A stretch of DNA of 63,289 nt, filler included. It is 3 parts of 3 records of this genome, joined end to end, with 100 filler letters (N's around TTAATTAATTAA, not from the genome) between each part and the next. Parts side by side here need not be neighbours in the genome. Positions count along the whole stretch, not along the records: positions 44,355 to 63,289 come from SRR20825006_208; 2 more parts are not named here. One strand, given 5' to 3'. Of the stretch, positions 17,610 through 61,703 are shown piece by piece. The position numbers and the translations under genes are program-made. Position 1 is the stretch's first letter; each line of letters begins with the position of its first letter. Below the pieces are notes generated by a model. It was not told where the DNA came from, ran no database searches, and saw only the letters and a program-made list of their open reading frames with translations.

Positions 17610-17623
17610 GAGAGGACTGAGAT

Positions 17624-44254: not shown

Positions 44255-44354
44255 NNNNNNNNNNNNNNNNNNNNNNNNNNNNNNNNNNNNNNNNNNNNTT
44301 AATTAATTAANNNNNNNNNNNNNNNNNNNNNNNNNNNNNNNNNNNNNNNNNNNN
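44255..44354. other. artificial contig spacer
   Basis: Same N-TTAATTAATTAA-N linker as 18305-18404. Confidence 0.97.
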
Positions 44355-44355
44355 A

Positions 44356-44757
44356 CAACGAAGCGCTACAGGATATAACGCCAAACGACTTAATATGCTT
44401 TTAGCTGTTTTAGAAAAAAGAGCTGGATTTAAATTAGGTGCAAAAGATGTCTTTTTAAATGTAACCGGTGGAATTTCTGTAGATGACCCTGCAATTGATC
44501 TCGCTGTGGTTGCAGCTGTTTTATCCAGCAATGAAGATATTCATGTTCCTAAAGATATTTGTTTTGCCGCAGAAGTGGGTTTAGCTGGTGAGATACGTCC
44601 AGTGCCAAAAGTTGAACAACGTATTCTTGAAGCTGAAAAACTAGGCTTTGCATCAATAATGATTTCACGCTATTGTAAACTTCCGAAGGAAACCTATGGC
44701 ATCAACGTGGTAAAAGCGGCGAAAATTACAGATGTTGTGCATTATCTTTTTGGCTAG
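44356..44757 (+). CDS. radA: DNA repair protein RadA/Sms, C-terminal part
   Basis: RL.MLLAVLEKR, DVFLNVTGG, DPAIDLAV, EVGLAGEIR, EAEKLGF. Confidence 0.93.
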   Translation, partial: QRSATGYNAKRLNMLLAVLEKRAGFKLGAKDVFLNVTGGISVDDPAIDLAVVAAVLSSNEDIHVPKDICFAAEVGLAGEIRPVPKVEQRILEAEKLGFASIMISRYCKLPKETYGINVVKAAKITDVVHYLFG

Positions 44758-44923
44758 CACCAAAATGAAGTTGAAATCGAAATTGATATAATTTTTAGTA
44801 CAGCTATCTCAATTAAGGCACTTATAGCCCATAGCTCACCACTCATAGATTAAAATACTAATACCTTACACCTATTCCCTAACGCCTATTTTTGGCATAA
44901 TTTCTGTTTAATTTATAGCTGCT

Positions 44924-46057
44924 ATGAATAAACAGATTTTTATTGTCTTAGGCGTATGTTTAGTAATTGTTTCTTGCAAGCAACTTACCAAAGCAACAGA
45001 TTTTATTACGCAACCAACTGCAAAAGAAATATATGCGCGTGATTTTGAAGACACAGATGTTATTTTTAATACTTGGACCAAAAACTTCGAGGTTTCAAAA
45101 AATGATTCTCTAAAAATTAATTTACCATATTTAGAGCAAGTACAACTACACAGCACTAATCTTCAGTCTTATTCATATAACATAAATCTTTCTGAAGGTG
45201 AGTTATTTAATCTGCAAATTGAAAGTGATGTAGATTCAATTCAATTTTTCTCTGAATTATTTAAAATTGAAGGCGACTCTATAACATCATTCAAATCATT
45301 AATAAAAAGCAAGCCTAATGAGACAAATATGTCTGTCCCAATTAAAGAGAGCGCTACTTATAAACTTATATTACAGCCAGAAATCTATGCTTCAACAAAA
45401 GCATCTTTAAAAATATTTACATCGCCTACCTATTACTTTCCTGTAGCAGGCAAAACTAGTAAGGCCATACAAAGTTTTTGGGGTGCAAGTCGCGATGGCG
45501 GTAAACGCAGCCATAAAGGTGTAGATATTTTTGCAGAAAGAGGCACACCTGTAATTGCAGCTGTTGATGGCTATGTAAGTTCAACTGGAAATAAAGGATT
45601 AGGCGGAAAACAAGTTTGGTTGAGAGACGGTCTTTTTGGAGCTTCACTTTACTATGCACACTTAGATAGTATTGCTACGCAGTCTGGTAAAAAAGTAAAA
45701 ATAGGAGATACTCTAGGTTTTGTAGGTAATACTGGCAACGCAAAATACACACCACCACATTTACATTTTGGTATTTACAAAGGCTACAATGGCGCTGTAA
45801 ATCCACTGCCGTTTATTAAAAATGCTGAAATCCCAGAAACAGATAATTTATTTGTTTCTATAACACCTAAGGCTATAATTAAAAACAGCGTAGCTAATAT
45901 AAGAATAGGACCATCTTCAAAATTTGATAAAATATCCCAACTTAAGCGTAATGATACTATTACAGTTCTGGGTAAACAGGATGATTGGTTACATATTAAA
46001 ACAGGTGACGGACAAAAAGCTTTTGTGTTTAAAACGCTTACAGAATCACTGCCTTAA
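44924..46057 (+). CDS. M23 family metallopeptidase lipoprotein with C-terminal SH3b domain
   Basis: Lipobox VSC; HKGVD, YAHL and PHLHF M23 motifs; ANIRIGPS SH3. Confidence 0.9.
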   Translation: MNKQIFIVLGVCLVIVSCKQLTKATDFITQPTAKEIYARDFEDTDVIFNTWTKNFEVSKNDSLKINLPYLEQVQLHSTNLQSYSYNINLSEGELFNLQIESDVDSIQFFSELFKIEGDSITSFKSLIKSKPNETNMSVPIKESATYKLILQPEIYASTKASLKIFTSPTYYFPVAGKTSKAIQSFWGASRDGGKRSHKGVDIFAERGTPVIAAVDGYVSSTGNKGLGGKQVWLRDGLFGASLYYAHLDSIATQSGKKVKIGDTLGFVGNTGNAKYTPPHLHFGIYKGYNGAVNPLPFIKNAEIPETDNLFVSITPKAIIKNSVANIRIGPSSKFDKISQLKRNDTITVLGKQDDWLHIKTGDGQKAFVFKTLTESLP

Positions 46058-46132
46058 AATTTAGAGTTTACATTAACATTCCTTTGTTAACAGAATTAAA
46101 TAGCTCTGGTTATCTTTAAAAGAAAAAACCAT

Positions 46133-47494
46133 ATGTCATTATTCGGTAAAATTAAAGGCACATTATCTCTTTTAAAAGATATAGATATAGAAGCTATTGC
46201 CAAGCTAAATTCTAAGATAGACTTAAAAGAAGTTATGGATAAGGTTGGTAGCTTAGATGATGACCAGCTTAATGGCTTAATGAAAATGCTTACTCGAAAA
46301 GCAAAAAGAGGCCAACACAAATTACCGCCTATTGATGGTGATTTTTATGACCTTAGCCTTAAGCTAACTCCAGAGCAACGAGAGATACAACTCAAGGTGC
46401 GTAATTTCATGGAAGATGAAGTGAGACCCATTGCCAATGAGTATTGGAAGAAAGCAGAATTTCCGCAACAGATTATCCCAAAATTAGCCACTTTAAATAT
46501 TGCCGGCATAGCTTATAAAGGCTATGGTTGTCCAGAACAAAATTTTGTGATGGAAGGTATAATTGCTATTGAAATGGCACGAGTAGATGTTTCGATGTCT
46601 ACATTTTTTGGCGTGCATAGCGGTTTAGCTATGGGAAGTATTTACCTATGTGGTAGTGAAGAGCAAAAGTTAGAATGGCTTCCTAAAATGCAACGTATGG
46701 AAGCTATTGGCGCCTTTGGTTTAACAGAACCAAATGTAGGTTCTGCCATTTCTCAAGGTATGGAAACCACCTGCCAACGTGATGGTGATACTTGGATACT
46801 AAACGGTCAAAAAAAATGGATTGGTAACGCCACATTTGCAGATGTAACAATAGTTTGGGCTAAAGATGTAGATGATAAGCAAGTAAAAGGATTTTTGGTA
46901 AGAAAAGGCACGCCTGGTTTTTCACCTGAAAAAATTGAAGATAAGATGGCGTTACGTACTGTAGAGAATGCCTTAATTACTATAACAGATTGTCGTATTT
47001 CAGAAAGTGACCGTTTACAAGAGGCTAATAGTTTTAAAGACACCGCAAAGGTTTTAAAAATGACACGTGCTGGTGTTGCTTGGCAAGCAGTAGGTTGTGC
47101 TAGAGGTGCCTATGAAAGTGCAGTTAAGTATTGTAAAAAACGTGAACAATTTGGGAAGCCAATTGCAACTTTTCAACTTATACAAAATCATTTGGTAGAG
47201 ATGCTCGCTAATCTTACAGCTATGCAAACCCTATGCTACAGACTTTCTGAACTCCAAGACGAAGGATTGTTAAAGGATGAACAAGCCTCATTGGCTAAAG
47301 TATTTTGCTCTATGCGCACACGAGATGTGGTGAGCAGAGCAAGAGAAGTTATGGGTGGCAATGGTATATTGTTAGAACACGATGTTGCTCGTTTTGTAGC
47401 AGATGCCGAAGCAATTTATAGTTACGAAGGTACCAAAGAGATTAACTCATTAATTGTTGGTCGCGCAATTACTGGATATTCGGCGTTTGTGTAA
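46133..47494 (+). CDS. acyl-CoA dehydrogenase family (glutaryl-CoA dehydrogenase-like)
   Basis: FGLTEP..GS, LNGQKKWIGN, REQFGKP, GGNG, YSYEGT. Confidence 0.9.
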   Translation: MSLFGKIKGTLSLLKDIDIEAIAKLNSKIDLKEVMDKVGSLDDDQLNGLMKMLTRKAKRGQHKLPPIDGDFYDLSLKLTPEQREIQLKVRNFMEDEVRPIANEYWKKAEFPQQIIPKLATLNIAGIAYKGYGCPEQNFVMEGIIAIEMARVDVSMSTFFGVHSGLAMGSIYLCGSEEQKLEWLPKMQRMEAIGAFGLTEPNVGSAISQGMETTCQRDGDTWILNGQKKWIGNATFADVTIVWAKDVDDKQVKGFLVRKGTPGFSPEKIEDKMALRTVENALITITDCRISESDRLQEANSFKDTAKVLKMTRAGVAWQAVGCARGAYESAVKYCKKREQFGKPIATFQLIQNHLVEMLANLTAMQTLCYRLSELQDEGLLKDEQASLAKVFCSMRTRDVVSRAREVMGGNGILLEHDVARFVADAEAIYSYEGTKEINSLIVGRAITGYSAFV

Positions 47495-47519
47495 TCCTTA
47501 TTTATTAGACAGTTAACGA

Positions 47520-47560
47520 AATAAAAAAGCAGGTTTTCTAAGAAAACCTGCTTTTTTATT
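47520..47560. terminator. bidirectional intrinsic terminator
   Basis: Perfect inverted repeat AATAAAAAAGCAGGTTTTCT-A-AGAAAACCTGCTTTTTTATT between convergent genes. Confidence 0.92.
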
Positions 47561-47585
47561 AAATGTAGGAGCTTGAGAGTAATTA

Positions 47586-48062
47586 TTAGTCTCTCCAAAC
47601 TTTAATCACGTCAAATTTTATGGTACCGTTAGGTGTTGTTACTTCTGCAACATCTCCTTCTTGTTTACCTAGTAAACCTTTCCCTATTGGAGAGTCCACA
47701 GATATTTTACCTGATTTTAAATCAGATTCGCTTTGCGCAACTAGTTTATAGGTCATTTCCGCACCATTTCCTTGGTGTTTTATCTTAACACTTGAGTGGA
47801 TTAATACTTTAGAGGTGTCTAGTTGAGAATCATCTATCACTCGTGCGTTAGATAGTACTCCTTCAAGCTTAGAAATTTTCATCTCTAACATACCTTGCGC
47901 TTCCTTTGCTGCATCATACTCAGCATTTTCACTTAGATCACCTTTATCTCTAGCCTCAGCAATAGCTTGAGACGCTTTAGGGCGCTCTACATCTCTAAGA
48001 AGGTCCAGTTCATCTCTCAACTTCTTTAATCCTTCTTCTGTATAATAATTTACTTTACTCAT
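47586..48062 (-). CDS. greA: transcription elongation factor GreA
   Basis: GDLSENAEYDAAKE and IS..SPIG..L.G. Confidence 0.97.
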   Translation of the reverse strand: MSKVNYYTEEGLKKLRDELDLLRDVERPKASQAIAEARDKGDLSENAEYDAAKEAQGMLEMKISKLEGVLSNARVIDDSQLDTSKVLIHSSVKIKHQGNGAEMTYKLVAQSESDLKSGKISVDSPIGKGLLGKQEGDVAEVTTPNGTIKFDVIKVWRD

Positions 48063-48195
48063 AATGTTGTTTTCTTAATCTTAATAAAAAAGCCTTCTTT
48101 AGTTTCATTTGGCTTCTAAATACTCTTATTAAATAGCGGTTAAAAACACAATAACAATAGAAGCATTACGTTATAATCAACTGATATTTAAACAC

Positions 48196-48235
48196 AAAAA
48201 ATCCCATACACGACGGGATTAGATGTTCAAATATA
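48196..48235 (-). promoter_or_regulatory. greA promoter (-7 TATATTTG) with promoter-proximal terminator hairpin
   Basis: Minus strand TATATTTG (48228-48235), then AATCCCGT-CGTGT-ATGGGATT followed by TTTT. Confidence 0.6.
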
Positions 48236-48286
48236 CATAATTTTTAGATGCTTGTCAATTATACTAACTTGCACAATTAAATTTTG

Positions 48287-48724
48287 ATGATGAAAAACCT
48301 ATTTATAGCTACACTTTTAATAGCAATACTATCTTCTTGCTCAACAGATGATTCTGCAAGAGATAATAATCCTAATTTAGTTGACTTAAACTTTGGGGCA
48401 GTTTATAACTTAACCTTACCACAATACAACCAATTAAATTTTGAAGGCAATAGTTTTCAAGACTATTCGGTTGGTATTTCTGGAATTAATATCTTTTATA
48501 TAGGTAACGATCAATACTTAGCTTTTGAGCTTACAGACCCAAATCATCCTGTTAGCGATTGTTCCAGGCTGGTAGTTACTGGTCTTACTGCAAGATGCCA
48601 ATGTGATGATAACAATGCATACAACCTTACCAACGGACAACAAACAGAAGGTGGTCCTGGAACATACAGTTTAAGGATGTATCGCGCTGAGCTTAACGGA
48701 GACATCCTTACTGTATCTAATTAA
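48287..48724 (+). CDS. hypothetical lipoprotein (Rieske-like fold suspected)
   Basis: Lipobox SSC; AF...DPNH...C...C.C..Y....G pattern; divergent from greA. Confidence 0.7.
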   Translation: MMKNLFIATLLIAILSSCSTDDSARDNNPNLVDLNFGAVYNLTLPQYNQLNFEGNSFQDYSVGISGINIFYIGNDQYLAFELTDPNHPVSDCSRLVVTGLTARCQCDDNNAYNLTNGQQTEGGPGTYSLRMYRAELNGDILTVSN

Positions 48725-48725
48725 G

Positions 48726-51137
48726 TTAAAATTTAAGTGTTGCTCCTAATAAAAAGTTAGCTTTTGCTTGCGGGAAAAATCCTGCTCCTTCAAAAGTTGT
48801 AATGCTACCGTCTTCATTTCCTCCATCGAAGGTGAAGTAATACCCATTATTTACATACTCTTCACTAAAGATGTTGTTAACCAATCCTGTTATCACTATT
48901 TCTTTAAACAGACTGTTTGTAGAGAAAGTATATTGCACATTTAAATCTGTTGTGAAATAGCTATCTAGTTTAGATAAAGGCGCTTCTACATTACTTAAAT
49001 ATTGTTCTCCTACATATTTATTAAGCATCTGTAACTCTAAATTTTTAACCGGTATGTATTTAATTGCGTTTCCAGCTATAACATTAGGCGAATACGAAAT
49101 TTCTGTATTGCCTAGGTTTACTAAGCTGCCGTCTAGACTAGTTACAAAATCTCTGTTTTTATTGGTACTTATAGCCATATTAGGATTCCAAATAAGGTTT
49201 TTCAAAATTTGAACAGATGCATCTACCTCTAACCCTAATCTATAGCTTGAGCCACTATTAGCTCTAATTGGTGATCCTACATCATCTATTGCTCCAGTAA
49301 GCACAAGTTGATTGTTATAATTCATATAATACACATTAGTATTTATTTGAAATTTAGGATTGTTTAATCTCCAACCTAACTCAAAATCATCTAACTGTTC
49401 TGGCTCTGGATTACCGTTTTCAAAATCTGTGCGGTTTGGTTCTCTGTTAGCTCGTGCATAAGATAAATACAAACTGTTTTCTGTATTTAACTTATAGTTT
49501 GTTCCTAATTTAGGATTAAAGAACGTATAGCTTTCATCTACATCTAAGTCGTCACTACCACCAATAGCTTCGTAATCTACTAGGCGTATTTGTGCGTCTC
49601 CATAAACACTCCATTTATCGCCAAATTTTAAAGTAGCTTTACTAAAAGCAGAAAATTCATTTTTCTCACTATCGCCATCATAATATCTGTCATAAGGTAA
49701 GAACCCGATAGGGATTTCTGTAGATAATATTTCGCCATAGTGATCTCCTTTATAGGTGCTATAAAAAGCTCCTGTTGTTACATCTAAACTTTCATTTTTG
49801 TAGTTTACACTTGCATTTACAGCTAAGAAATTATTATCTAACCAACGACGTCTTACATAATCTGTAGTTGTAAACTCTTCGCCATCTATGGTTACAGGAT
49901 CTACGCCAAAAAAGTCTAATTGTGCATCTCCTGAAAATAAGATGTTTGAATAATAAAATTCATCTACATACTGCTCAAAATATCCTGCACCTCTAGTGTA
50001 GTTAAGTGCTACGTTAGTGCTCCAGTTATTATTGTAACGCTCATTCCAAAGTAATTGATAATGATCTTGACGGTAATTATCTACTTCATTTTCATAAAAT
50101 CCTTCAAAGTTTCCTTCGCGGTCAAATTGTTGTCCTACGGTATTAAATGTTCTGTCGCTTTGTAGCGTTGCCTCATCGACACCATAATAGGCCTGATAAG
50201 TTTCTTCAAAACCACCAAAGGTTATAGCTTTTATTAGTGTGTTATCATCTTTATAAGCTGCTTGTAAAAAATAACCCTTAAGATCTGATGTTGCACGATC
50301 TATATAACCATCTGAATCTATTTTGGACAAACGCCCTGAAACTGAAAAATGATCACTTAATGTTCCAGTTCCAAACCTAAGTGTTGCCTTACGAGTGTTA
50401 AAACTACCTACAGATCCAGACAGCTCACCATAAGCTTCATCTTTTACAGCATCTGTCAAGATATTTAAACTTGCACCAAAAGCACCAGAGCCATTTACAG
50501 AAGTACCAACACCGCGTTGTAATTGGATGTTCTCTGTAGAAGAGGCAAAATCTCCTAAATTAACCCAAAATGTGCCTTGGCTTTCTGCGTCGTTATAAGG
50601 AATCCCGTTAATTGTTACATTTACACGAGTAGCATCACTACCACGCACACGTATTCCAGTATAACCAACACCAGCACCAGCATCACTAGTTGTTACAACT
50701 GCAGGTTGGTAGTTTAAGAGTATAGGAATGTCTTGTCCTAAGTTACGATCTTCAATCTCTTCTTTAGAAATGTTTGAATACGTAATTGGTGAGTCTGCAG
50801 TAACTCTTACAGAACGCACTAAGACTTCATCTAAAATCTCAGAGTCTTCTAATAAGACAAAATTTGCAGTTACATCTTCTTCAAGATTAATAGTCTGCTC
50901 TTGTGTAATCATACCAACATAACTTACAACTATTGTATACTGCTCTTTTTCTAAAGAGAAGTTATAGTTACCAAGTGCATTGGTTTCTGTGCCTGTAGTT
51001 GTTCCTTTAATAAAAATAGAAACACCTTCAATAGGCTCATTTTTAGAGTTTGTGACATTACCAGAGAGTTGAAATTCTTGCGCAAATGTGCTGGCAGACA
51101 CAAATAGTGCGCAAAGTAGAATAGATACAGTTTTCAT
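48726..51137 (-). CDS. TonB-dependent receptor, probable thiamine (vitamin B1) uptake
   Basis: Signal peptide, carboxypeptidase-regulatory-like N-terminal domain, plug (RVRG..R.NV.INGIP.ND), C-terminal Phe; preceded by a TPP riboswitch. Confidence 0.88.
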   Translation of the reverse strand: MKTVSILLCALFVSASTFAQEFQLSGNVTNSKNEPIEGVSIFIKGTTTGTETNALGNYNFSLEKEQYTIVVSYVGMITQEQTINLEEDVTANFVLLEDSEILDEVLVRSVRVTADSPITYSNISKEEIEDRNLGQDIPILLNYQPAVVTTSDAGAGVGYTGIRVRGSDATRVNVTINGIPYNDAESQGTFWVNLGDFASSTENIQLQRGVGTSVNGSGAFGASLNILTDAVKDEAYGELSGSVGSFNTRKATLRFGTGTLSDHFSVSGRLSKIDSDGYIDRATSDLKGYFLQAAYKDDNTLIKAITFGGFEETYQAYYGVDEATLQSDRTFNTVGQQFDREGNFEGFYENEVDNYRQDHYQLLWNERYNNNWSTNVALNYTRGAGYFEQYVDEFYYSNILFSGDAQLDFFGVDPVTIDGEEFTTTDYVRRRWLDNNFLAVNASVNYKNESLDVTTGAFYSTYKGDHYGEILSTEIPIGFLPYDRYYDGDSEKNEFSAFSKATLKFGDKWSVYGDAQIRLVDYEAIGGSDDLDVDESYTFFNPKLGTNYKLNTENSLYLSYARANREPNRTDFENGNPEPEQLDDFELGWRLNNPKFQINTNVYYMNYNNQLVLTGAIDDVGSPIRANSGSSYRLGLEVDASVQILKNLIWNPNMAISTNKNRDFVTSLDGSLVNLGNTEISYSPNVIAGNAIKYIPVKNLELQMLNKYVGEQYLSNVEAPLSKLDSYFTTDLNVQYTFSTNSLFKEIVITGLVNNIFSEEYVNNGYYFTFDGGNEDGSITTFEGAGFFPQAKANFLLGATLKF

Positions 51138-51316
51138 CCGTAACAAAAATTACGAATAAAAGGGGCGATTATTCTTAGGTTTAAAAAAATTAAATTATAA
51201 AGCTACTATAGCTTCTTGTGTTATTAAAACAGTAAAATTTTAGTCTATTTCGCAAAAAAATAACCCATTGCAATATGCTTACAACAACTTAATTTGACTA
51301 AAAAAATATGTTTTAA

Positions 51317-51396
51317 AAATTTCCCTAAACAGCATTACCTGTTCTAGGTTCATTGGGTGTAATCTCAGCCGTATTAAAATACAGCACCCCTTTGAG
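51317..51396 (-). ncRNA. TPP (THI-box) riboswitch, variant
   Basis: Minus strand AAAGGGGTGC-TGTATTTTAATACG-GCTGAGA-TTAC-ACCC-AATGAA-CCTAGAACAG-GTAATG-CTGTTTAGGGAAA. P2, GCUGAGA, ACCU and the L5 UAAU are present. Confidence 0.88.
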
Positions 51397-51404
51397 ATTT
51401 TGCG

Positions 51405-51412
51405 CAAAGATA
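51405..51412 (-). promoter_or_regulatory. Bacteroidetes -7 element for the riboswitch/TonB receptor transcript
   Basis: Minus strand TATCTTTG about 10 nt upstream of the aptamer. Confidence 0.7.
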
Positions 51413-51493
51413 GACATTGGTTTTAATCTGCAAAATCAATTTTATTAATTCCTTAGCATATCGCTATAAGAACTCTCTGTATTTTTGAAGCCT

Positions 51494-53935
51494 ATGGATA
51501 AGACCAAAAATAGGTTTACATTTAAAATCATACTTAGTTATGTGACCTTAGGGGTTTTAGCCCTTGTTGTAGGTTTTTTCTTGTATTCTGAATTTAAGTT
51601 TCTGCTTAAAACCAATACGACTACAACAGAAGATGAAAAATTTATAGAAACCGGAACACTTATAAATCAAGTTTACGAAACCGATGGCTTTTCCAGGCTT
51701 GCCTTGCTTACTGGTGAAGAGTCTGATTTTGAGTTATATCAACAAAAAGCAGACTCACTTTTTAATAAAATTGAGGAAATAAAAACCTTAACAGACATCC
51801 AATTTCAAAAGCAACAATTGGATTATGTTAAAGAGCTACTGCTTCAAAAAACTAAGAATATTGAGCAGCTACGCATTCTTAAACTTACCAATAGTAAAGA
51901 CTCTTCTTTTGATGATATAGCAGAAGAGTTTAATAAGCTAGAATCCTCTATGGGGAAACTCACAGTCGAAACGTTTATTAATAATCCCAATGATCTTACA
52001 GAGCGAGAACGTAGAATTTGGAGTAATTATGTAGAATACCTAAATCAATCTGAAGAGCGAGACACTGCCACTGTAAAAACAAAGGTTGTAGACTCTATGA
52101 TTACTGCAACAAGATTTATTCTGGCTGAAGCTAAAAGAGAAAATTCAAAATCTAGAGAAGCGCTACAGCAAAAAGAGAATGAGTTAATTAGGAACGATCT
52201 AAATATTTCTGCACAATTGCGCCAAATAATAACTGCGTTTGATGCAGAGATAGCACGAAAAAACCAAATACAAGCGACCAAGAAAAGTGCTTCTGTAGAT
52301 AGGACAAGTACAATTTTAAAATACTCTGGTGTTTTAGGAATATTTATCATACTCCTATTTACCTACATTATTTTAAATGATTTCTTTAAAGCAGAACGCT
52401 TTAAAATATCACTCAAAAAATCTAAAGATTATTCTGAAGAACTTTTAAAAAGTAGGGAACAACTTATCTCAACTGTAAGTCACGATTTAAAAACACCCTT
52501 AAATACAATTGTAGGCTACTCTGATCTTATTGAAAATACAGACCTTACAGAAAAGCAACTATACTATGTAAACCAAATAACCAACAGCTCATTATACGTG
52601 ACCAAGTTGGTTGATGACCTTTTAGATTTCTCTAAACTAGAAGCTGGCAAACTACATATTGAAACTATACCATTTTCTCTAGAAAGCATAATACAGCAAA
52701 CTGTTGAAACCTCTAAAGATGTGCATCAACAAAAAAATGTAGCCATCCATCTTTATGTGGACCAAGCTATAAGCAATCAAGTTTTTGAAAGCGACCCACT
52801 ACGTATTCGCCAAATATTAAGTAACCTAATTGGTAATGCATTTAAATTTACCGAAGAAGGTTCTGTTACAGTTTATGCTAAAATATTAGAGCAAAAAGCA
52901 CAAGAATTTGAGATAGAAATAAAGGTAGTAGATACCGGAATAGGTATTTCTAAAGAAAAACAAGAACTTATATTTAAAGAATTTCAGCAAGCAGAAGCAG
53001 ATACCATAAAACGCTTTGGCGGTAATGGCTTAGGCCTTGCCATTAGCAGGAAACTTACCAACTTATTACATGGAACCTTAACTGTAGATAGTACTCCAAA
53101 CCAAGGCAGTACGTTTACATTAGTATTACCTCTCAAACTTTCTGAGAGTAAACTAAAGTCTGAAATTACCACGTTAACTAAAGCGGTAAAGTCTTTAACT
53201 GTTGTGGTTATAGATGATGATACAAGTATGACTAAGTTATTAGAGGAGCTTTTTGGCCAAATGAATATTACTTGCCACAGCTTTAATGCTTTTGAAGATT
53301 TTGTTGCTTCGCATAATTTTGAATACGATTTTGTACTTACAGATGTTGAAATGCCAAAAACAAATGGCTTTCAGGTTTTAGAACAACTAAAGCGACACTT
53401 TAAAGCAAATTATAACGGACAGCCAATTGTGGCTATGACAGGTAGTAGAGAATACACCGTAAGATCTTTTAAAGAACAAGGTTTTTCTGGATTGTTGCAC
53501 AAACCTTTTCCTAAGGAGAAGTTATATTCTGCCTTAAATCAATTATTTCCAGAACATATGGGAATACCTATTAAAATTGAAAGCGAAAAGGAAACAACAC
53601 AACAAAGCACATTATTTAATTTAAGCTTGCTCAACTCATTTCTTAGTACAGAAGACGCTTTAGAAGAAGTTTTGTTTTCGTTTTATAATGAAGTGAATAT
53701 AGATTTACAACGTATGGCACTAGCCGTAAAAACAGAAGATTATACCGCCGTAAATGACATAGCACACAAAATGCTTACACTAACCAGACAATTAGAAGCT
53801 AAAGAGGTTGTAAAAATTTTAGATGTGTTAGAGTATGTAACTCCAGAAAACTTAAGGCAAGAAACATTAACGTCTCTATTTAACTCATTACAAGAAAAAG
53901 TAGAAAACTTAGTGACAGCTTTAAAGAATAGATAA
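51494..53935 (+). CDS. hybrid sensor histidine kinase (periplasmic domain, HisKA, HATPase, REC, Hpt)
   Basis: Two TM segments, SHDLKTPL, NAFKFT, DTGIG, GLGL, DVEMP, and AHKM Hpt-like motif. Confidence 0.93.
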   Translation: MDKTKNRFTFKIILSYVTLGVLALVVGFFLYSEFKFLLKTNTTTTEDEKFIETGTLINQVYETDGFSRLALLTGEESDFELYQQKADSLFNKIEEIKTLTDIQFQKQQLDYVKELLLQKTKNIEQLRILKLTNSKDSSFDDIAEEFNKLESSMGKLTVETFINNPNDLTERERRIWSNYVEYLNQSEERDTATVKTKVVDSMITATRFILAEAKRENSKSREALQQKENELIRNDLNISAQLRQIITAFDAEIARKNQIQATKKSASVDRTSTILKYSGVLGIFIILLFTYIILNDFFKAERFKISLKKSKDYSEELLKSREQLISTVSHDLKTPLNTIVGYSDLIENTDLTEKQLYYVNQITNSSLYVTKLVDDLLDFSKLEAGKLHIETIPFSLESIIQQTVETSKDVHQQKNVAIHLYVDQAISNQVFESDPLRIRQILSNLIGNAFKFTEEGSVTVYAKILEQKAQEFEIEIKVVDTGIGISKEKQELIFKEFQQAEADTIKRFGGNGLGLAISRKLTNLLHGTLTVDSTPNQGSTFTLVLPLKLSESKLKSEITTLTKAVKSLTVVVIDDDTSMTKLLEELFGQMNITCHSFNAFEDFVASHNFEYDFVLTDVEMPKTNGFQVLEQLKRHFKANYNGQPIVAMTGSREYTVRSFKEQGFSGLLHKPFPKEKLYSALNQLFPEHMGIPIKIESEKETTQQSTLFNLSLLNSFLSTEDALEEVLFSFYNEVNIDLQRMALAVKTEDYTAVNDIAHKMLTLTRQLEAKEVVKILDVLEYVTPENLRQETLTSLFNSLQEKVENLVTALKNR

Positions 53936-55309
53936 TTACAACTCTAAATTATAATGCTCCATCTTATTATAAAGAGTCTTTCTGGTAACATTTAACAACC
54001 TAGCCGCTTTACTCTTATTGTAACCAGCTTCTTTAAGTGCATTAATTATAAGTTGCTTTTCATTAGTGTCTTTAGAAAAATCTTGAGTTGTTACTGCCAC
54101 TTGTCCCTTAAAGTTAACTACTTCTCTAGGAATTACATCTATTGGCACCAACTGCCCAGTTGTAAGTAAAACAGCTCTTTTAATAATGTTTTTTAATTCT
54201 CTCAGGTTACCAGGCCAGTTGTAGGATTTAATAGCTTCTTCAACTTCCTTAGACAGGCCTACAACATTTTTATCTAAAGCTTTGTTAGCCATTTCTAAAA
54301 AGAACTCTGTAAATAAGAATAAATCGTCACTACGCTCTTTTAAGCTAGGTATATGTACAGAAAACTCATTTAGCCTATGGTATAAATCTTCTCTAAACTT
54401 ACCATCTGCAACTGCTTTTAAAAGATCTTCATTAGTGGCAGAAATAATTCTAACATCTACCTCTATCTCTTTGTTACTGCCTACAGGTTTTATTTTTCTT
54501 TCTTGTAAGGCACGCAAAAGCTGAACTTGGTTTTCGTAAGACAGATTACCAACCTCATCTAAAAATAATGTGCCTTTATGAGCAGCTTCAAAATGACCTT
54601 TTTTGTCATTTATTGCGCCTGTAAAGCTTCCTTTTACGTGTCCAAAAAACTCACTTGCAGCAATTTCTTTAGGGATAGCACCACAATCTACAGCTACAAA
54701 ATTTTCGTTACTGCGTTTGCTATAGTTATGAATAGCATTTGCGGCAACCTCTTTACCAGTACCACTTTCACCTTGTATAAGCACGCACATATCTGTTGGT
54801 CCTACAAGCTTTAGGTACTCATTAAATTTCTTAGAAGATTCACTAATACCTTTCACAAATGAAGAAGAGTCTGGAAGCTCACTCGTTTTGTGCTTTACGG
54901 TTTTAGCTTTAGGACTTGTTTCAACATTAAGTGTAGCATTTGTTTTAGATTTATTTTCTGCCTGCTCAATAACCATTAGCAACTCTTCTGGTCTAAACGG
55001 TTTTGAAATATAATCTAACGCTCCTTTTTTAATAGCTTCAACAGCTGTTGAAACTTCTGCATAACTTGTCATTAAAATAATGTTAGTATCTGCAGATACG
55101 CTTTGGCAATACTCCAAAAGATTAAGGCCGCTATCATCTGGAAGCTTTAAATCTGTTATAAGCAACTCATACTTTTGTTCTTCCATCTGCTTTCTAGCAT
55201 GATTTCCGTTTAAGGCAGTACTTACCTGAAAACCCTTTCGTTCTAGAAACTTAGAAAGCATTTTACCAAAAGCAACGTCATCTTCTACGACTAATATTCG
55301 TTGTATCAT
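53936..55309 (-). CDS. sigma54-dependent NtrC-family response regulator
   Basis: REC domain, GESGTGKE, GSFTGA, LFLDE, WPGNLREL and Fis-type HTH. Start moved to ATG 55309. Confidence 0.94.
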   Translation of the reverse strand: MIQRILVVEDDVAFGKMLSKFLERKGFQVSTALNGNHARKQMEEQKYELLITDLKLPDDSGLNLLEYCQSVSADTNIILMTSYAEVSTAVEAIKKGALDYISKPFRPEELLMVIEQAENKSKTNATLNVETSPKAKTVKHKTSELPDSSSFVKGISESSKKFNEYLKLVGPTDMCVLIQGESGTGKEVAANAIHNYSKRSNENFVAVDCGAIPKEIAASEFFGHVKGSFTGAINDKKGHFEAAHKGTLFLDEVGNLSYENQVQLLRALQERKIKPVGSNKEIEVDVRIISATNEDLLKAVADGKFREDLYHRLNEFSVHIPSLKERSDDLFLFTEFFLEMANKALDKNVVGLSKEVEEAIKSYNWPGNLRELKNIIKRAVLLTTGQLVPIDVIPREVVNFKGQVAVTTQDFSKDTNEKQLIINALKEAGYNKSKAARLLNVTRKTLYNKMEHYNLEL

Positions 55310-55372
55310 TTCATATATGTATGAATTGTAAAAATAGAAAGTCTCCACACCTTTTGTCTTTAAAGTTATCAT

Positions 55373-55406
55373 AAAAAAAAGACACCCATTTTACTGAGTG
55401 CCTCTT
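55373..55406 (-). terminator. intrinsic terminator after the two small secreted proteins
   Basis: Minus strand GAGGCACTCA-GTAAAA-TGGGTGTCTT stem followed by a T-run. Confidence 0.75.
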
Positions 55407-55433
55407 CAACGTATTAAAAACTAAATCCTGCTT

Positions 55434-55757
55434 CTATTGCTTTTTAATCCACTCGCCTTTGCTATTTGCATAAACGGTTTTTTCAGCTTTATCTGCAGTA
55501 GTTATGACAAGCTTGTACTCGTCCTTGTCATTTGCAAAGGCTTTAGTAAGAGTTGCCCCTTTAAAATCTGATGCAAATGCTTCTTTAACGGCTTGTGGTA
55601 ATTTCTCTGCAGTAATTGCTTTGTAATTATCCTGAACAGCAACTGTAGTCTTCACTTCAGTCTTTGTCATTGCCATTGTTTCAGTTTTCTTTTCCTGTGC
55701 ATTCATTGCTGTTAGTGTACCTAGAGCAATTGCAGCTGTTAATATGATCTTTTTCAT
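55434..55757 (-). CDS. small secreted protein, PepSY/DUF2874-like repeat (paralog 2)
   Basis: Signal peptide; LPQAV...F.GATL.KA...EYKL...VYA...GEWIK. Confidence 0.8.
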   Translation of the reverse strand: MKKIILTAAIALGTLTAMNAQEKKTETMAMTKTEVKTTVAVQDNYKAITAEKLPQAVKEAFASDFKGATLTKAFANDKDEYKLVITTADKAEKTVYANSKGEWIKKQ

Positions 55758-55798
55758 AACAATTTTTTTTTGTGGTTAAACTATAATCTAGTTGGTGG

Positions 55799-56125
55799 TT
55801 ATTTTTTCTTAATCCACTCACCTTCTGCAGTTGCATATACAGTTGCTTCTGTATCTTCTGCAGTAGTAAGGGTTAATTTATATTCGTTTTTACTGTTTAT
55901 GTACGCCTTATTTAAGGTTGCTCCTTCAAAATCTTTTGATAGTGCAGTTTGAACCTCTTGTGGTAAATCTGTAGCTTTAATTTCTACATATTTTTCCTGT
56001 AATAAAGACTCTGCTTTTACCTCAACAGAAGCTTCTGTATTTGCTGCTACTGGTGTTGTAGCTTGTGCATTTGTAAATCCTATTGCTCCTAATGCAATTA
56101 CCGCTGTATATATGATCTTTTTCAT
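55799..56125 (-). CDS. small secreted protein, PepSY/DUF2874-like repeat (paralog 1)
   Basis: Signal peptide; LPQEV...DFEGATLNKA...EYKL...VYA...GEWIKK. Confidence 0.8.
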   Translation of the reverse strand: MKKIIYTAVIALGAIGFTNAQATTPVAANTEASVEVKAESLLQEKYVEIKATDLPQEVQTALSKDFEGATLNKAYINSKNEYKLTLTTAEDTEATVYATAEGEWIKKK

Positions 56126-56174
56126 GATATCTAATTTTAGATTTATTTAATGTTTCAAAGTTGTTAGGTATAAG

Positions 56175-56190
56175 GCTACAATTATACCAA
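56175..56190 (-). promoter_or_regulatory. sigma54 (-24/-12) promoter
   Basis: Minus strand TTGGTATAATTGTAGC gives GG-N10-GC, 50 bp upstream of ATG 56125. Confidence 0.65.
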
Positions 56191-56368
56191 GGCTTTAAAA
56201 AATTAATTATCAAGTAAGTTTTGATAGAATATTATAGATAAAAAAGTACATGCCAGTACTCATAAAACAATAAACACCAATGCATTACAGGTTTTGTTTT
56301 ATATGTAGTTTATAAAAACACAACTAATTAGGTACAAAATATATGAAAGTTGAAAATTGGATATCAGG

Positions 56369-56404
56369 TGTGTAAACTTTAAAATTGTGTGTAATTGTTA
56401 CACA
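56369..56404. promoter_or_regulatory. putative enhancer (UAS) for the NtrC-type activator
   Basis: Perfect palindrome TGTGTAA-TTG-TTACACA (56388-56404) plus an adjacent degenerate copy TGTGTAA-ACT-TTAAAAT (from 56369). Confidence 0.6.
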
Positions 56405-56419
56405 AAAGATCTGTATAGT

Positions 56420-56827
56420 TTAGTAATCTAATCTTGGCTTCTGTCTATTTGCTTTTTTCTTAGATGTTTTTTTCTTTGAATTAAGGCGTTTTAGTTTGGC
56501 CATTTTAGAAGGTCTTGTCTTTTTTCTAGGAGGTTTTTGCTTAGCGTTCTTTTTGATAAGCTCTAAAAAACGTTTAATAACTATATCCTTATTTTTGTGT
56601 TGACTTCTTGAGTCTTGAGCAACTATAATAAGGACGTTATCTTTAGTTAGCCTTGAGGAAAGCTTTTCTAACAATATAAAACGTTCTTTTTCTGAAATTG
56701 CTTGAGATGAGTTAATATTCCATCTAAGCTCAACTGCTGTTTCTGTTTTATTAGCGTGCTGGCCGCCAGGTCCAGAACTTGTGGTAGTGTTAAACTCTAC
56801 CTCTTCTATAAGTTGAGAGGCATTCAT
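56420..56827 (-). CDS. arfB: alternative ribosome rescue factor B
   Basis: SSGPGGQHANK GGQ motif, RSQ..N, and basic C-terminal tail. Confidence 0.93.
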   Translation of the reverse strand: MNASQLIEEVEFNTTTSSGPGGQHANKTETAVELRWNINSSQAISEKERFILLEKLSSRLTKDNVLIIVAQDSRSQHKNKDIVIKRFLELIKKNAKQKPPRKKTRPSKMAKLKRLNSKKKTSKKKANRQKPRLDY

Positions 56828-58413
56828 TAATTACTTATTTGGTGTGATTCTTTTAATAGATCTACCACAGTTTTTACAGGGTTAAATGTAGATAAGGGAA
56901 CTTCTACAAAAATTGTATTCCAATGTGCCATAGAGCCATTCCACAAACCAGGACGTTCTAATGCTTTTATATCTTGGCCATTTATGGTCTTTTGATTTAT
57001 AAAGCCTGCTTTATAATCTACATATTTAAGTAAGTCGAATTTTTCTCCTTTATAATTTCTTACGCTGCAAACAATATCTACAGGATTAAAATGTGTTGCA
57101 TCATTAAGGTAACGTAACTGTCTTGGGTCTTCTTTGTTAATTTGAACAGATTCTACAATCTGAAGAGATATTTTACCGCTTTCATGTTTAACCCAAAAAG
57201 GACCGCCACCTGGCTCTCCTTCGTTCTTAACCATACCACAAACGCGAATAGGTTTATCAAGTTGTTCCCGCAAATATTCAATTTGATATTTTAAAGAGAA
57301 CTTCTCAAAATCTTCGGACAGTATATTATTAAAGTTATCTTGTAAAAAGTAAACAATCTCGTGTATAAATTCTTCTGTAGGGTTCGCATTTTCATCTAAC
57401 ATCTCAAGAAATTTGAACGATGTTTGTCTTTGCTCTAAAAGCAAACCACCTAACATTTTCTTATAGTTGGCCACATCTTCTTCATATTGATATGTGACTA
57501 CATTGTCTATATTTTTAATAAATATGATATCTGCATCTTGTTCATTTAAATTTTCAATTAATGCACCATGACCGCCAGGTCTAAATACCAGATTGCCATC
57601 GTCATCTACAAATGGTGTATTATCTAAATTAACCGCTACAGTGTCTGTACTTTTCTTTTGGTAAGACTCTGTGGTAATAAATGTTGTGTCAGTTTTATTA
57701 GAGACTATGTCTTTTATACGATCATACTCAGATTTAAACTTATTGTAATGGTTATTTGATATGGTAAAATGAAGATGCGCCTTTTTATTTGGAGCAGCAT
57801 ACTTAGAGGCCTCAAATAAATGTTCTGCAAATGCAGATGCAGTATGTTCTTTATATTTATGAAAAGGCACCAATCCTTTAGGGAGATTTCCGTAGTTAAG
57901 TCCAGTTTCGCCTAATAAACACTCTACAATGCACACTTTTTTCTCATCATCAGAAAGTGAATTATAATTTGGGCAAGTTTTCTTTAACTGCTGAAGTATA
58001 GCCTCATAAAATGGAAATTTTTCTAAGCCGACAAAAAAGAGTTTAAGTGTATTGTCTTTTGTTTTATTTATAAAGGCATTAATACTTTCTTTTGAAGGAT
58101 TATAGGTGTCTAAAAACCGGTATAATGACTTAAACATTCTTGTAGCAGCGCCTGAAGCAGGTACAAATTTGATGACTTCAATATCATCTAGTTTTGAATT
58201 GTATAACTTAATATACGTCTGTTTCTTATCGTCTGAGATTTGAAGGATTCCGTTTTCTATTGTAGCACAGTCTGTCAAATTTATAAAAGGAATACCTTCC
58301 ATGAAGGTTTGCAACTGGTTCTCAACCTGTTTTAACGTTAAACCGTGATTTTCTATTTGCTTAAGTTGCTGTGCTGTAAAATCCAAAATATTTGCTTTTA
58401 TAGTGCCTCGCAA
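56827..58413 (-). CDS. DUF4301 family protein (nucleotidyltransferase-like motifs)
   Basis: KFVPASGAATRMFK, LPKGL, RPGGHGAL, IKNIDN, GEPGGGP, PGLWNG.M, FNPVKT. Start TTG at 58413 or 58386. Confidence 0.85.
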   Translation of the reverse strand: MRGTIKANILDFTAQQLKQIENHGLTLKQVENQLQTFMEGIPFINLTDCATIENGILQISDDKKQTYIKLYNSKLDDIEVIKFVPASGAATRMFKSLYRFLDTYNPSKESINAFINKTKDNTLKLFFVGLEKFPFYEAILQQLKKTCPNYNSLSDDEKKVCIVECLLGETGLNYGNLPKGLVPFHKYKEHTASAFAEHLFEASKYAAPNKKAHLHFTISNNHYNKFKSEYDRIKDIVSNKTDTTFITTESYQKKSTDTVAVNLDNTPFVDDDGNLVFRPGGHGALIENLNEQDADIIFIKNIDNVVTYQYEEDVANYKKMLGGLLLEQRQTSFKFLEMLDENANPTEEFIHEIVYFLQDNFNNILSEDFEKFSLKYQIEYLREQLDKPIRVCGMVKNEGEPGGGPFWVKHESGKISLQIVESVQINKEDPRQLRYLNDATHFNPVDIVCSVRNYKGEKFDLLKYVDYKAGFINQKTINGQDIKALERPGLWNGSMAHWNTIFVEVPLSTFNPVKTVVDLLKESHQISN

Positions 58414-58952
58414 TGCTCTATTGCAGTTTTTAAACGAGTTTCTACATTACCTTGTAATATTACATAATTACAATTATTTGCATCTAACTCATCCTTAAAC
58501 TTTAAAAACATAGCTTTACGTTCATCAGGTTTATCCCTAAGATCGTCTGCTTCCCAAGGTGTATCAATATAGGTTAATAGATATAGGTGGTAATAGTGGT
58601 CATTAACAGCACCTAAGATTTCTTTGGGGCAATAGTCGTTATAATATGCTTTGGAGTAAACTTTTATCTCACGAAGATTAGTATCACAAAACAAATATTT
58701 ATTTGCAACGTTGGAAAGTTCATTCTCCGTATTAATTTGCCCTTTTGCAATTGGGATTAAATCTTCCTTTTCACAAACTGTTTGTGTCCTATCCCATTTG
58801 TCTTGTAAATATATTCTCATAAACTCAGGCACAGAAACTGTTTTAAAATGTTCTGCTAAAAGGTTTACTAAAGTAGTTTTTCCTGAAGATTCAGGACCGT
58901 AGAGAACAATTTTTAGGCAGTCTGAAGTCTGTTGTTTAAAATCTTTTTCCAA
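58398..58952 (-). CDS. NadR/Ttd14-type P-loop kinase (ribosylnicotinamide-kinase-like domain only)
   Basis: GPESSGKTT, VPE..R.Y, FCDT, PW..D.LRD; no HxGH adenylyltransferase domain. Confidence 0.87.
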   Translation of the reverse strand: MEKDFKQQTSDCLKIVLYGPESSGKTTLVNLLAEHFKTVSVPEFMRIYLQDKWDRTQTVCEKEDLIPIAKGQINTENELSNVANKYLFCDTNLREIKVYSKAYYNDYCPKEILGAVNDHYYHLYLLTYIDTPWEADDLRDKPDERKAMFLKFKDELDANNCNYVILQGNVETRLKTAIEHCEAL

Positions 58953-59545
58953 GCTAAGTATCCAAATATTGAGATAATGACAAATATAACGTAAAGAAAA
59001 CTGCTCAATGTTAAACCCTTGTAAAAATAGAGCGGCACACTAATTACATTTCCCATTAATAAAAACAGCCAATTTTCTAGTTTCTTTTTGGCAAGCATCC
59101 ACATACCTACAAAGAACAATCCTGTTGTAAGTATATCTATATAGGATACCCAACCCTCAAACTTTTCAAACACATAATATATTATGTATATAAACAACAT
59201 TGTACTTAAAAATATTCCTAAACTATACGTATAGTCATTTTTAGTAGCCTTTGTTATAGGTGTTGTTTGCGTTGGTGTAACTTTTCTTGTCCAAATATAC
59301 CAGCCGTAAATACTCATTACAAAGTAGTAGCCATTAATTATGGTATCGCCTAGTAAATTGAATTTTAATAAGATATAAACAAAGATTAAAGTACTTACTA
59401 TTCCTGTAGGATACACCCAAACACTGTTGCGCATAGAGCAAATAGAAGATATTAAACCGAATACAATACCGGCAACTTCAAGACCTATAATATGTGTTTC
59501 GTAACCTCGATATTGCCCGAAGAAAAACTCAAAAATGGGGCTCAT
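58913..59545 (-). CDS. pnuC: PnuC-family vitamin transporter
   Basis: YP.GI, YY..MSIYGW..W, KK.ENW, PLYFYKG, GY..W; about 7 TM segments. Confidence 0.9.
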   Translation of the reverse strand: MSPIFEFFFGQYRGYETHIIGLEVAGIVFGLISSICSMRNSVWVYPTGIVSTLIFVYILLKFNLLGDTIINGYYFVMSIYGWYIWTRKVTPTQTTPITKATKNDYTYSLGIFLSTMLFIYIIYYVFEKFEGWVSYIDILTTGLFFVGMWMLAKKKLENWLFLLMGNVISVPLYFYKGLTLSSFLYVIFVIISIFGYLAWKKILNNRLQTA

Positions 59546-59789
59546 AATCGTGACGATCAGATTTTACGATTTTAATATAAAGTAAACCTCTCTCAACAAC
59601 CTCTAAAGCTATTTTCATTTCTTTTTGAAGAATACCCATCACCTCGTCATACTCTCCATATACTTGCGTACTTAAAGGGTTCTCCAATACTTTTAACCCT
59701 GAAGCTCTTAAGGATTTAATGAAGTTTATTATTGCTGGTTCAAAATCGTCTTGTAGTGGAGTTAGCGTTAGCTCGACTGAAATATTCAT
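59529..59789 (-). CDS. YkoF/MTH1187-type thiamine-binding protein
   Basis: ISVEL...PL, I..L..SGL....P.ST...G.YDEVM; ferredoxin-like, 86 aa. Confidence 0.8.
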   Translation of the reverse strand: MNISVELTLTPLQDDFEPAIINFIKSLRASGLKVLENPLSTQVYGEYDEVMGILQKEMKIALEVVERGLLYIKIVKSDRHDYEPHF

Positions 59790-59809
59790 TATGGTTGGTT
59801 TGGTTTCAG

Positions 59810-60694: not shown

Positions 60695-60738
60695 ATTAAA
60701 ACTTTTATACAAAGATACATTTTATTGCTCTAGTGTTC

Positions 60739-61605: not shown

Positions 61606-61645
61606 CTTCTTTTTAAATTCAGTTTTTATCTTGACTTTACAAATT

Positions 61646-61675
61646 AAAAAACTCTCAACTAGTGTTGAGAGTTTT
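61646..61675 (-). terminator. intrinsic terminator after the TonB receptor
   Basis: AAAACTCTCAAC-TAGT-GTTGAGAGTTTT inverted repeat. Confidence 0.88.
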
Positions 61676-61703
61676 AAGACTAATTTTTAACTATTTAAAT
61701 AAC

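Follow-up and report, generated by a model that had tools for sequence, protein, structure and literature searches.

Can a thiamine pyrophosphate (TPP) riboswitch do without the loop that holds the pyrophosphate, and if so, what does it sense? The question is raised by an RNA element on the minus strand of a 63,289-nucleotide stretch of DNA (the window), which resembles the TPP riboswitch, or THI-box, and lies directly ahead of a gene for a TonB-dependent receptor. No riboswitch class is more widespread than the TPP riboswitch, whose pyrophosphate pocket is regarded as universal; the variant would thus be either a second RNA way to hold TPP or a sensor of a different vitamin B1 vitamer. We consider it somewhat better than an even bet (roughly 55%) that the element is a functional THI-box riboswitch, acting as an OFF switch on the receptor gene, with a phosphorylated thiamine as its ligand.

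A THI-box aptamer lacking the pyrophosphate loop

From 51399 to 51322 on the minus strand, the element reads AAUCUCAAA-GGGGUGC-[P3]-GCUGAGAUUACACCC-AAUGAA-CCU-AG-AACAG-GUAAUG-CUGUU-U-AGG-GA (P, J and L denote paired regions, joining regions and loops). A sequence-only reading had placed a TPP riboswitch variant at 51317-51396, and the strings it quoted are the same ones, read on this strand. No match was returned when the entire window was scanned against Rfam at gathering thresholds, because the aptamer falls under the cut-off of RF00059, the TPP riboswitch family. In a permissive Infernal scan of 50900-51700, RF00059 matched end to end at 51303-51401 (minus strand) with 42.5 bits (E 7.1e-07), against a gathering score of 54.3 bits, and was the sole Rfam family in that interval with E below 0.1.

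The pyrimidine-sensor half of the aptamer (P2/P3, the J3/2 sequence CUGAGA and the GGGGUGC...ACCC frame) is canonical, in agreement with the RF00059 consensus and as the sequence-only reading had it. That reading had also described the other arm as able to pair continuously with a single bulge and its pyrophosphate-sensing loop as collapsed, and both descriptions held. The Infernal alignment sets the consensus ..CCggCGuAGGGA against CUGU-UUAGGGA, with a gap and a U in place of the C-G. The internal loop that serves as pyrophosphate sensor in canonical members (G60 in J4/5, C77-G78 in J5/4) is therefore absent from the window, where J4/5-J5/4 has shrunk to AG opposite a single U. Since this loop is a defining feature of the family, its absence sets the element apart from ordinary RF00059 members. 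The P4-P5 arm nevertheless has a conserved length (9-10 layers) and a nearly invariant L5, GUAAUG, and is predicted to be able to dock on P3. In the same alignment P3a is missing and the P1 pairs are flagged as non-canonical.

The collapsed arm is conserved across Bacteroidota

The nearest genome to the third part of the window, G001, belongs to the same family and a different species; it carries a homologous aptamer that is 81% identical, and shares with the window the divergent hybrid histidine kinase and the receptor downstream. We therefore sampled the family of G001 with 61 genomes, one per genus. At E≤0.01, RF00059 matched in 56 of the 61 genomes; matches above the cut-off were found in only 16. 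The family relatives score 27-50 bits, and some Bacteroidales with the same arm and a normal P1 score 54-63 bits. Three above-cut-off matches (L014, L018, L019) and one further match (L242) were left out of the classification of arms. Including the one in the window, we counted 51 distinct variant aptamers in the family; under a slightly wider definition, 52 of the 61 genomes have the variant. All 51 share (N)UCUCAAA(A), GGGGUGC, P3 and GCUGAGAUYAUACCC, followed by an arm built as CCU-(N)G-[5 bp]-GUAAUG-[5 bp]-(A/U)-AGG.

In an alignment of 42 of these sequences CUGAGA, GGGG and CCC are invariant, and 96.7% of the structure cells hold standard pairs, rising to 100% in the P4-P5 helix. The pairs that replace the loop covary (pair 72-87: AU 23, GC 18, GU 1; pair 73-86: GC 21, AU 20, GU 1), which argues that the collapsed loop is under selection. 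In 500 shuffles neither the pairing nor the covariation score was ever reached, and pairing was 33-66% in slid controls. The similarity to RF00059 is thus far beyond chance, and a chance match is rejected.

A covariance model built from the 42 relatives (R1) was then run over 151 genomes of the phylum. Its best 30 matches comprised 19 collapsed, 3 intermediate and 8 canonical arms, the collapsed ones coming from all 11 genomes of the G001 family (11/11) and, in 8 cases, from four other families of the class. When one genome for each of 185,579 species was scanned for the exact pattern, at least 120 loci were returned, spanning Flavobacteriales, Chitinophagales, Cytophagales and some Bacteroidales; among the matches listed were Flavobacteriaceae, Weeksellaceae, Saprospiraceae, Lewinellaceae, Chitinophagaceae, Cytophagales and Marinilabiliaceae, together with metagenome-assembled genomes of Porphyromonas, Prevotellaceae and Bacteroides. 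Collapsed-arm RNAs are thus a conserved Bacteroidota subclass and no local accident. The family sampled here, most genera of which have them, is a major one among marine and soil bacteria.

The sequence-only reading was to be checked by an alignment to RF00059, given above, and by tabulating J4/5 and J5/4 across Bacteroidota. In all 120 matches listed, J5/4 was A or U. The arm had G opposite A in 83 of these, NG opposite U in 34 and another arrangement in 3, the lone unpaired G of the subclass facing an A or being bulged beside an N-U pair; a non-Watson-Crick G stood directly after CCU in 119, and the first two P5 pairs used all four Watson-Crick types at both positions. The equivalents of A61, C77 and G78 were lost in all 120, as in all 51 family loci. 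By alignment to the canonical class, then, the subclass keeps the U59-A80 equivalents and a non-Watson-Crick G, and has base pairs where A61 and C77-G78 would be.

Some elements in the family depart further. One receptor ortholog (46% identity; L034, G052:C4) is preceded by the most extreme collapse seen, CCA-GAUAG-AUAAUG-CUAUC-A-UGG, in which the conserved G is paired too and a bulged A alone is left. Further degenerate TPP-like elements (L004, G001:C32, 29 bits; L028, G038:C3, 47.9 bits; L039, G018:C21, 47.1 bits) have the CUGAGA half intact, a more aberrant P4/P5 and no obvious thiamine gene directly downstream. At nine variant loci (L054, L064, L069, L071, L073, L074, L077, L078 and L079) the P3 loop is replaced, in several genera, by insertions of about 60-110 nt, some containing short tandem repeats such as CAUAACU.

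A putative translational switch on the receptor

All 51 variant loci of the family have an open reading frame (ORF) with a signal peptide 23-222 nt downstream. When two further loci (L021, L034) were added, a Plug domain was present in 53 of 53 downstream ORFs and the beta-barrel in 40, the rest running off their locus. In the window this ORF encodes a receptor of 806 amino acids, to which the receptors of 50 variant loci are 47-62% identical. We regard the receptor as the regulated gene and as a candidate outer-membrane thiamine importer.

The leader between promoter and start codon shows how the aptamer might control it. In all 42 aligned leaders TAnnTTTG, which we take to be the consensus of the Bacteroidota -7 promoter box, lies 8-11 nt ahead of UCUC. 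Because of this spacing the RNA is predicted to begin just 5' of UCUCAAA, a start too close for a conventional P1 to fit. In place of UCUCAAA, canonical aptamers of this family carry ACUUU. P1 is present in other lineages that have the variant arm, for example AACAAA/UUUGUU in L226 and L241. We also considered pairing of UCUC with the GAGA of J3/2 and rejected it: GAGA never varies, such a helix would run across the anti-P2 helix described below, and UCUC is missing in other lineages. The only natural changes of UCUC (UCUU in L045, UUUU in L049) would still be compatible with such pairing.

In nearly all family leaders the stretch just ahead of the start codon has the order AGAAUAAU-NN-CC(C/U)CUUUU-AUUCG-[variable hairpin]-CGAAUGAAA. 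The core of it, CC(C/U)CUUU(U)-AUUCG followed by ATGA.. within 60 nt, was found in 46 of 49 family leaders, and the core with ATGA.. in 54 of 107 leaders among the scan matches listed. In this region CGCCCCUUUU is complementary to AAAGGGGUG on the 5' side of the aptamer, as is CGCCCCUUU; AAAGGGGUG comprises an A-run and the P2 5' strand. In the unconstrained fold of the window, CGCCCC lies in the internal loop between the two stems of a hairpin that sequesters the start codon. Across 112 leaders the length of the A-run correlates with that of the U-run (r=0.82), a correlation that is essentially one between two clades.

When either the aptamer or the anti-P2 helix was forced to form in 13 leaders, the two folds lay 0-4 kcal/mol apart in all 13. 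With the aptamer formed, the AUG and the subsequent A-rich codons are paired; in the anti-P2 fold the RNA is free from the G of the AUG onwards. These nearly iso-energetic folds suggest the following scheme. The transcript would start a few bases 5' of UCUCAAA. In the absence of ligand, AAAGGGGUG would pair with CGCCCCUUU, presented in the internal loop of the long hairpin, and this pairing would open the lower hairpin, exposing the last letter of the AUG along with the A-rich codons. Ligand binding would let P2 form and release CCCCUUUU, and the hairpin would shut over the AUG. The 5' strand of P2 would thus be the switching strand, with the A-run and this strand competing between P2 and the CCCCUUUU box. 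The folds indicate that the element in the window is most likely a translational OFF switch on the TonB-dependent receptor.

Transcription attenuation was set aside for the window, since 0 terminator-like sites were detected in 51050-51520. At four other loci (L058, L065, L068, L078) a hairpin with a U-run, read by eye, follows immediately 3' of the aptamer.

RNA-library contigs from three marine studies cover 50689-51351 in one piece, from the 5' coding region of the receptor through the leader into the aptamer arm; they fit a long 5' untranslated region, although this proves little. Three contigs (X14, X15, X17) stop by 51379, two of them ending in adapter at 51357 and 51379, and X16 spans the whole stretch. 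The ends of the three are compatible with a transcription start near 51398, missing cover being no evidence in itself. An apparent 51176->51324 joint in X15 and X17, anchored on one side by only 27 letters, was discarded, as it probably reflects relatives with a shorter spacer. Summed contig depth over 51313-51374, the aptamer arm, was 3-9 times that of the flanks in the three libraries. The loose contig ends are leaders of other species, so that leaders of many related species are present in those libraries.

Salvage genes and the route to TPP

A kinase/DUF4301 operon had been noted near the element, and it is indeed there: four minus-strand genes (Thiamine_BP, a transporter of the PnuC family, a NadR-like kinase of the AAA_28 type and DUF4301) make up a salvage operon that lies 5.4 kb upstream of the riboswitch on the same strand, with PnuC and the kinase 7 kb upstream. 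A histidine kinase and a sigma-54 activator lie between the salvage genes and the riboswitch-receptor half. The Rfam E-value scan of 59400-59900 detected no TPP-like RNA before the salvage genes. The window thus combines the parts of a riboswitch-controlled thiamine uptake locus, namely a THI-box RNA, a TonB receptor, a Pnu transporter and a kinase, the last being of the AAA_28/NadR-like type and not TPK. DUF4301 shows weak UDPGP-like similarity (E 5.4e-04).

The association recurs across the family. A kinase ortholog is present in 57 of the 61 genomes, and in 45 of the 52 with the variant the two share a contig and are no more than 10 kb apart (26 at 1.0-2.7 kb, 19 at 5.5-9.2 kb). At one locus (L261) Thiamine_BP, PnuC, kinase, DUF4301, riboswitch and receptor follow one another, all co-directional; another (L262) has the same contiguous, co-directional order without DUF4301 and with an additional RF-1 domain gene. 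The AAA_28 kinase is a candidate thiamine kinase, one that would form thiamine monophosphate (TMP).

The thiamine genes of the family point the same way. ThiL was found in 61/61 genomes, ThiE in 17/61, ThiC in 11/61 and TPK in 5/61, and 36 genomes have no ThiC, ThiE or TPK match and the variant only. From this content the typical family member appears to be a B1 auxotroph that reaches TPP via TMP and ThiL, and a role for TMP would suit this metabolic context. Fourteen family genomes, all with ThiE, have canonical aptamers. Annotation at the Rfam threshold overlooks the sole thiamine riboswitch in about two thirds of the sampled family genomes. The element itself flags a likely thiamine receptor gene in B1-auxotrophic Flavobacteriaceae, and links this gene to the module of PnuC, the NadR-like kinase and DUF4301.

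A second PnuC-family gene stands under a TPP aptamer in five genomes (L002, L022, L037, L070 and L076, in G001, G042, G016, G032 and G046, respectively). The pyrophosphate arm ahead of this gene is canonical, L076 being unconfirmed, and in L002, L022 and L076 an acyl-CoA-dehydrogenase-like ORF follows (weak Pfam matches in L002).

Which ligand?

In the E. coli thiM riboswitch Mg has G60 and A61 as ligands and the beta-phosphate forms hydrogen bonds with C77/G78, as described in bioRxiv 10.1101/2025.01.21.634073, and PMC3764141 counts U59, A80, G60, C77 and G78 among the most conserved positions of the class. The G at the place of G60 is kept in 119 of the 120 variant matches listed, so that a phosphate-metal contact may persist. 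The fixed arm length, the invariant L5 and the unpaired G likewise suggest that the arm still touches the phosphate-metal group. TPP is still the likeliest main physiological effector, at about an even chance, held via a metal bridged to the conserved G and with a weaker dependence on the beta-phosphate.

The variant is also found away from receptors. By Pfam, a collapsed arm precedes ThiS-ThiC in Labilibacter (L236) and Saccharicrinis (L237), ThiD-ThiS in L234 and L241 and ThiE-ThiG in L205. We found only variant-type elements, and no canonical one, in Labilibacter (G215) and at nine of the ten loci inspected from the 11 genomes of the family of G213. Since only variant-type elements stand ahead of biosynthesis operons there, the variant must report the end state of the pathway in these organisms. 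Such a placement agrees with the sensing of an end product and speaks against an importer-specific precursor, for instance hydroxymethylpyrimidine (HMP). Saccharicrinis aurantiacus (G212) has two thiC genes, one (L232) behind a canonical aptamer (72.9 bits) and the other, in thiS-thiC (L237), behind a collapsed-arm aptamer (52.7 bits); a third aptamer, of the variant type, precedes its receptor.

A shift in specificity is a tentative alternative to which we give somewhat long odds: the variant may prefer TMP, or may fail to discriminate TMP or thiamine from TPP, the beta-phosphate contacts being gone and the Mg-coordinating G kept. Such a sensor would report the TMP pool supplied by ThiE and by a salvage route of PnuT and the NadR-like kinase with ThiL as its last step. 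The losses at A61, C77 and G78 in the 51 family loci and the 120 matches listed speak for it, and the margin to be overcome is small for TMP, which binds thiM about 1.4 orders of magnitude more weakly than TPP, against about 3 orders for thiamine, according to bioRxiv 10.1101/2025.01.21.634073. So do the universal ThiL and the rare TPK of the family and its 36 variant-only genomes without ThiC, ThiE or TPK. By tblastn, the NadR-like kinase was found near 39 of the 120 variant matches listed and TPK near 0, whereas near 16 canonical receptor loci TPK with PnuC was found at 4 (3/15 in Bacteroidales, plus G022) and the NadR-like kinase at 0. G022 is the sole family member with a canonical arm ahead of the receptor; it has PnuC and TPK, and neither the variant nor the kinase. 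Saccharicrinis, with canonical and variant aptamers ahead of two different thiC genes, and the fact that all gene contexts of the variant lie on routes through TMP, are of the same tendency. The contrast between the kinases, however, may reflect inheritance of whole modules in few independent events, 3 of the 5 TPK-positive genomes also have the variant, and the substrate of the NadR-like kinase is a candidate only. Moreover, the variant also controls thiS-thiC and thiD operons, and the pathway of these organisms likewise ends in TPP, the dominant cellular vitamer. No natural member of the class is known to prefer another ligand. A 2022 review names only TPP and HMP pyrophosphate (HMP-PP) as thiamine-related riboswitch ligands (PMC9971707).

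Two further explanations would take thiamine phosphates out of the picture, and we consider each highly improbable. One is a sensor of a pyrimidine without the thiazole (HMP, its mono- or pyrophosphate, or a degradation product) serving a precursor importer; the pyrimidine-sensor half is the only fully canonical half, and ThiC is found in few family genomes (11/61). The strong conservation of P4/P5 length, of GUAAUG and of the unpaired G would, however, be unexpected for an arm without contacts, and the known HMP-PP riboswitch is described in PMC6478431 as unrelated and terminator-embedded. Since ThiE is lacking from all but 17 of the 61 genomes, most variant genomes could not use HMP. The other is decay, which would leave a ligand-blind aptamer in a leader that acts as a constitutive or a protein- or temperature-dependent translation attenuator. 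The sub-threshold Rfam score, the lack of an evident P1 in the window and the degenerate elements L004, L028 and L039 would fit. On the other hand, the nucleotides of the pyrimidine pocket are near-invariant across orders and P3, P4 and P5 show compensatory changes, which together argue for purifying selection on a folded aptamer.

Several observations weigh against a functional OFF switch that responds to a phosphorylated thiamine. The P1 region of the window offers A/U complementarity only, with no evident P1 helix, and UCUC is without a pairing partner in the window. The predicted ON fold often leaves two letters of the AUG, A and U, paired. C77 and G78 rank with the most conserved positions of the class, so that their loss should cost much TPP-specific affinity. 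Finally, canonical arms persist in the same family and genomes, in leaders of thiC or thiS-thiC (9 loci), thiD, thiM-thiE and PnuT; the difference between canonical and variant arms therefore appears to be maintained and is not merely the build of the lineage.

Relation to known riboswitches

With the TPP riboswitch proper (RF00059; thiM, PDB 2GDI as cited in bioRxiv 10.1101/2025.01.21.634073) the variant has in common the two-armed fold and the association with thiamine genes, and in sequence the GGGGUGC...GCUGAGA...ACCC P2-P3 region, a GUAAUG-type L5 and the AGGGA 3' end. It differs in having Watson-Crick pairs in place of the unpaired J5/4 C-G and the A61-type residue, so that its internal loop is 1x1 (G/A) or 2x1 (NG/U), compared with about 3x3 in canonical members. 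In Flavobacteriaceae it also has no evident P1, and there the P2 5' strand is predicted to switch.

The arrangement of the locus has a precedent in Bacteroides thetaiotaomicron, where OMthi (BT2390) is a TonB-dependent thiamine transporter with a TPP riboswitch acting on translation, according to PMC5613172 and bioRxiv 10.1101/867226. As in OMthi, a thiamine-type riboswitch stands directly ahead of the TonB receptor, with a Pnu-family inner-membrane partner and the translational control proposed here. In our Bacteroidales sample (41 genomes), in contrast, the best 30 RF00059 matches had canonical CG arms, many of them before receptor-like ORFs; the Bacteroides switches that have been studied are therefore probably canonical and uninformative on the variant. 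The nearby kinase differs as well, being TPK in Bacteroidales (3/15 canonical receptor loci) and the NadR-like kinase, with DUF4301, in the window. A riboswitch with translational control before a TonB thiamine receptor is thus already known from Bacteroides; what is added here is the anatomy of the collapsed loop, with its covariation and distribution, together with the expression platform and the contrast between the NadR-like kinase and TPK. In the open full-text literature, as distinct from supplementary alignments (such as those of PMC5613172) and subscription journals, which lay outside the search, we found no description of a THI-box subclass without the J5/4 C-G.

The HMP-PP riboswitch (thiS motif) is, by PMC6478431, the only other validated class of the thiamine pathway, which is thus sensed at more than one metabolite; it is a small aptamer within a terminator stem that activates thiazole genes, whereas the window holds a full THI-box and no terminator. 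Closer in kind are the variants of the guanine class for xanthine and 2'-deoxyguanosine, in which, as here, the parent fold is kept, ligand contacts are substituted and the associated genes are distinct (PMC9295807). Those variants are rare and biochemically validated, whereas the collapsed THI-box is abundant and known here from sequence. Collapsed-loop THI-box RNAs might form a natural class for TMP, or for thiamine phosphates irrespective of the beta-phosphate, though this is less likely than not. If true, the TPP riboswitch would have its first vitamer-specific offshoot, one that is common among Bacteroidota of sea and soil and inherited together with a candidate salvage route to TMP (receptor, PnuT, a NadR-like kinase acting on thiamine, and ThiL).

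Feature coordinates and composition of the window

Table 1. Elements of the riboswitch-receptor locus and the neighbouring salvage genes (positions in the window)
Feature	Position	Strand	Evidence or remark
Promoter -7 box TATCTTTG, TAnnTTTG type	51405..51412	minus	TA..TTT invariant, G nearly so, in 42/42 leaders
Possible -33 TTTG	51431-51434		
5' element UCUCAAA, predicted at or near RNA 5' end	51391..51397	minus	T3, T5 invariant; C4, C6 nearly so
Variant TPP-type aptamer	51322..51390	minus	RF00059 match; own model R1 from 42 relatives; structure counts
P2	51387-51389 with 51355-51357	minus	part of aptamer
P3 hairpin	51368-51385	minus	part of aptamer
J3/2 CUGAGA	51363-51368	minus	part of aptamer
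J2/4 AAUGAA	51349-51354	minus	part of aptamer
Remodelled pyrophosphate-sensor arm	51324..51348	minus	P4-P5 100% paired in 42 sequences
P4, CCU with AGG	51346-51348 with 51324-51326	minus	
J4/5 AG; J5/4 U	51344-51345; 51327	minus	
P5, AACAG with CUGUU	51339-51343 with 51328-51332	minus	
L5 GUAAUG	51333-51338	minus	
A/U-rich leader spacer	51176..51321	minus	sequence and length variable between genera
Platform box, AGAAUAAU (51168-51175) and CGCCCCUUUU (51158-51167)	51158..51175	minus	motif conserved in leaders
Start-codon sequestor hairpin, UUUUAUUCGUAAU (51149-51161) with GUUACGGAUGAAAA (51131-51144)	51118..51161	minus	minimum-free-energy fold
AUG in sequestor stem	51135-51137	minus	
Lower stem, AGAAUA with UAUUCU (codons 5-7)	51170-51175 with 51118-51123	minus	
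TonB-dependent receptor (CarboxypepD_reg, Plug, beta-barrel)	48726..51137	minus	Pfam
DUF4301	56827-58413	minus	Pfam, NCBIfam
AAA_28 NadR-like kinase	58398-58952	minus	Pfam, NCBIfam
PnuC-family transporter	58913-59545	minus	Pfam, NCBIfam
Thiamine_BP (PF01910, E 1.7e-08)	59529-59789	minus	Pfam

The window is a composite, with junctions near 18404/18405 and 44254/44255, and looks like contigs of a mixed bin joined end to end. Its first part (1-18404) has a GC content of 0.49-0.56 and no match in G001, and the second (18405-44254) is 100% identical to G001:C1:23509-49358. The third, 44255-63289, which holds the riboswitch, has a GC content of about 0.33 and matches G001:C44 at 67-81% only. A truncated ChlI/Lon_C ORF lies at the second junction (44395-44757).

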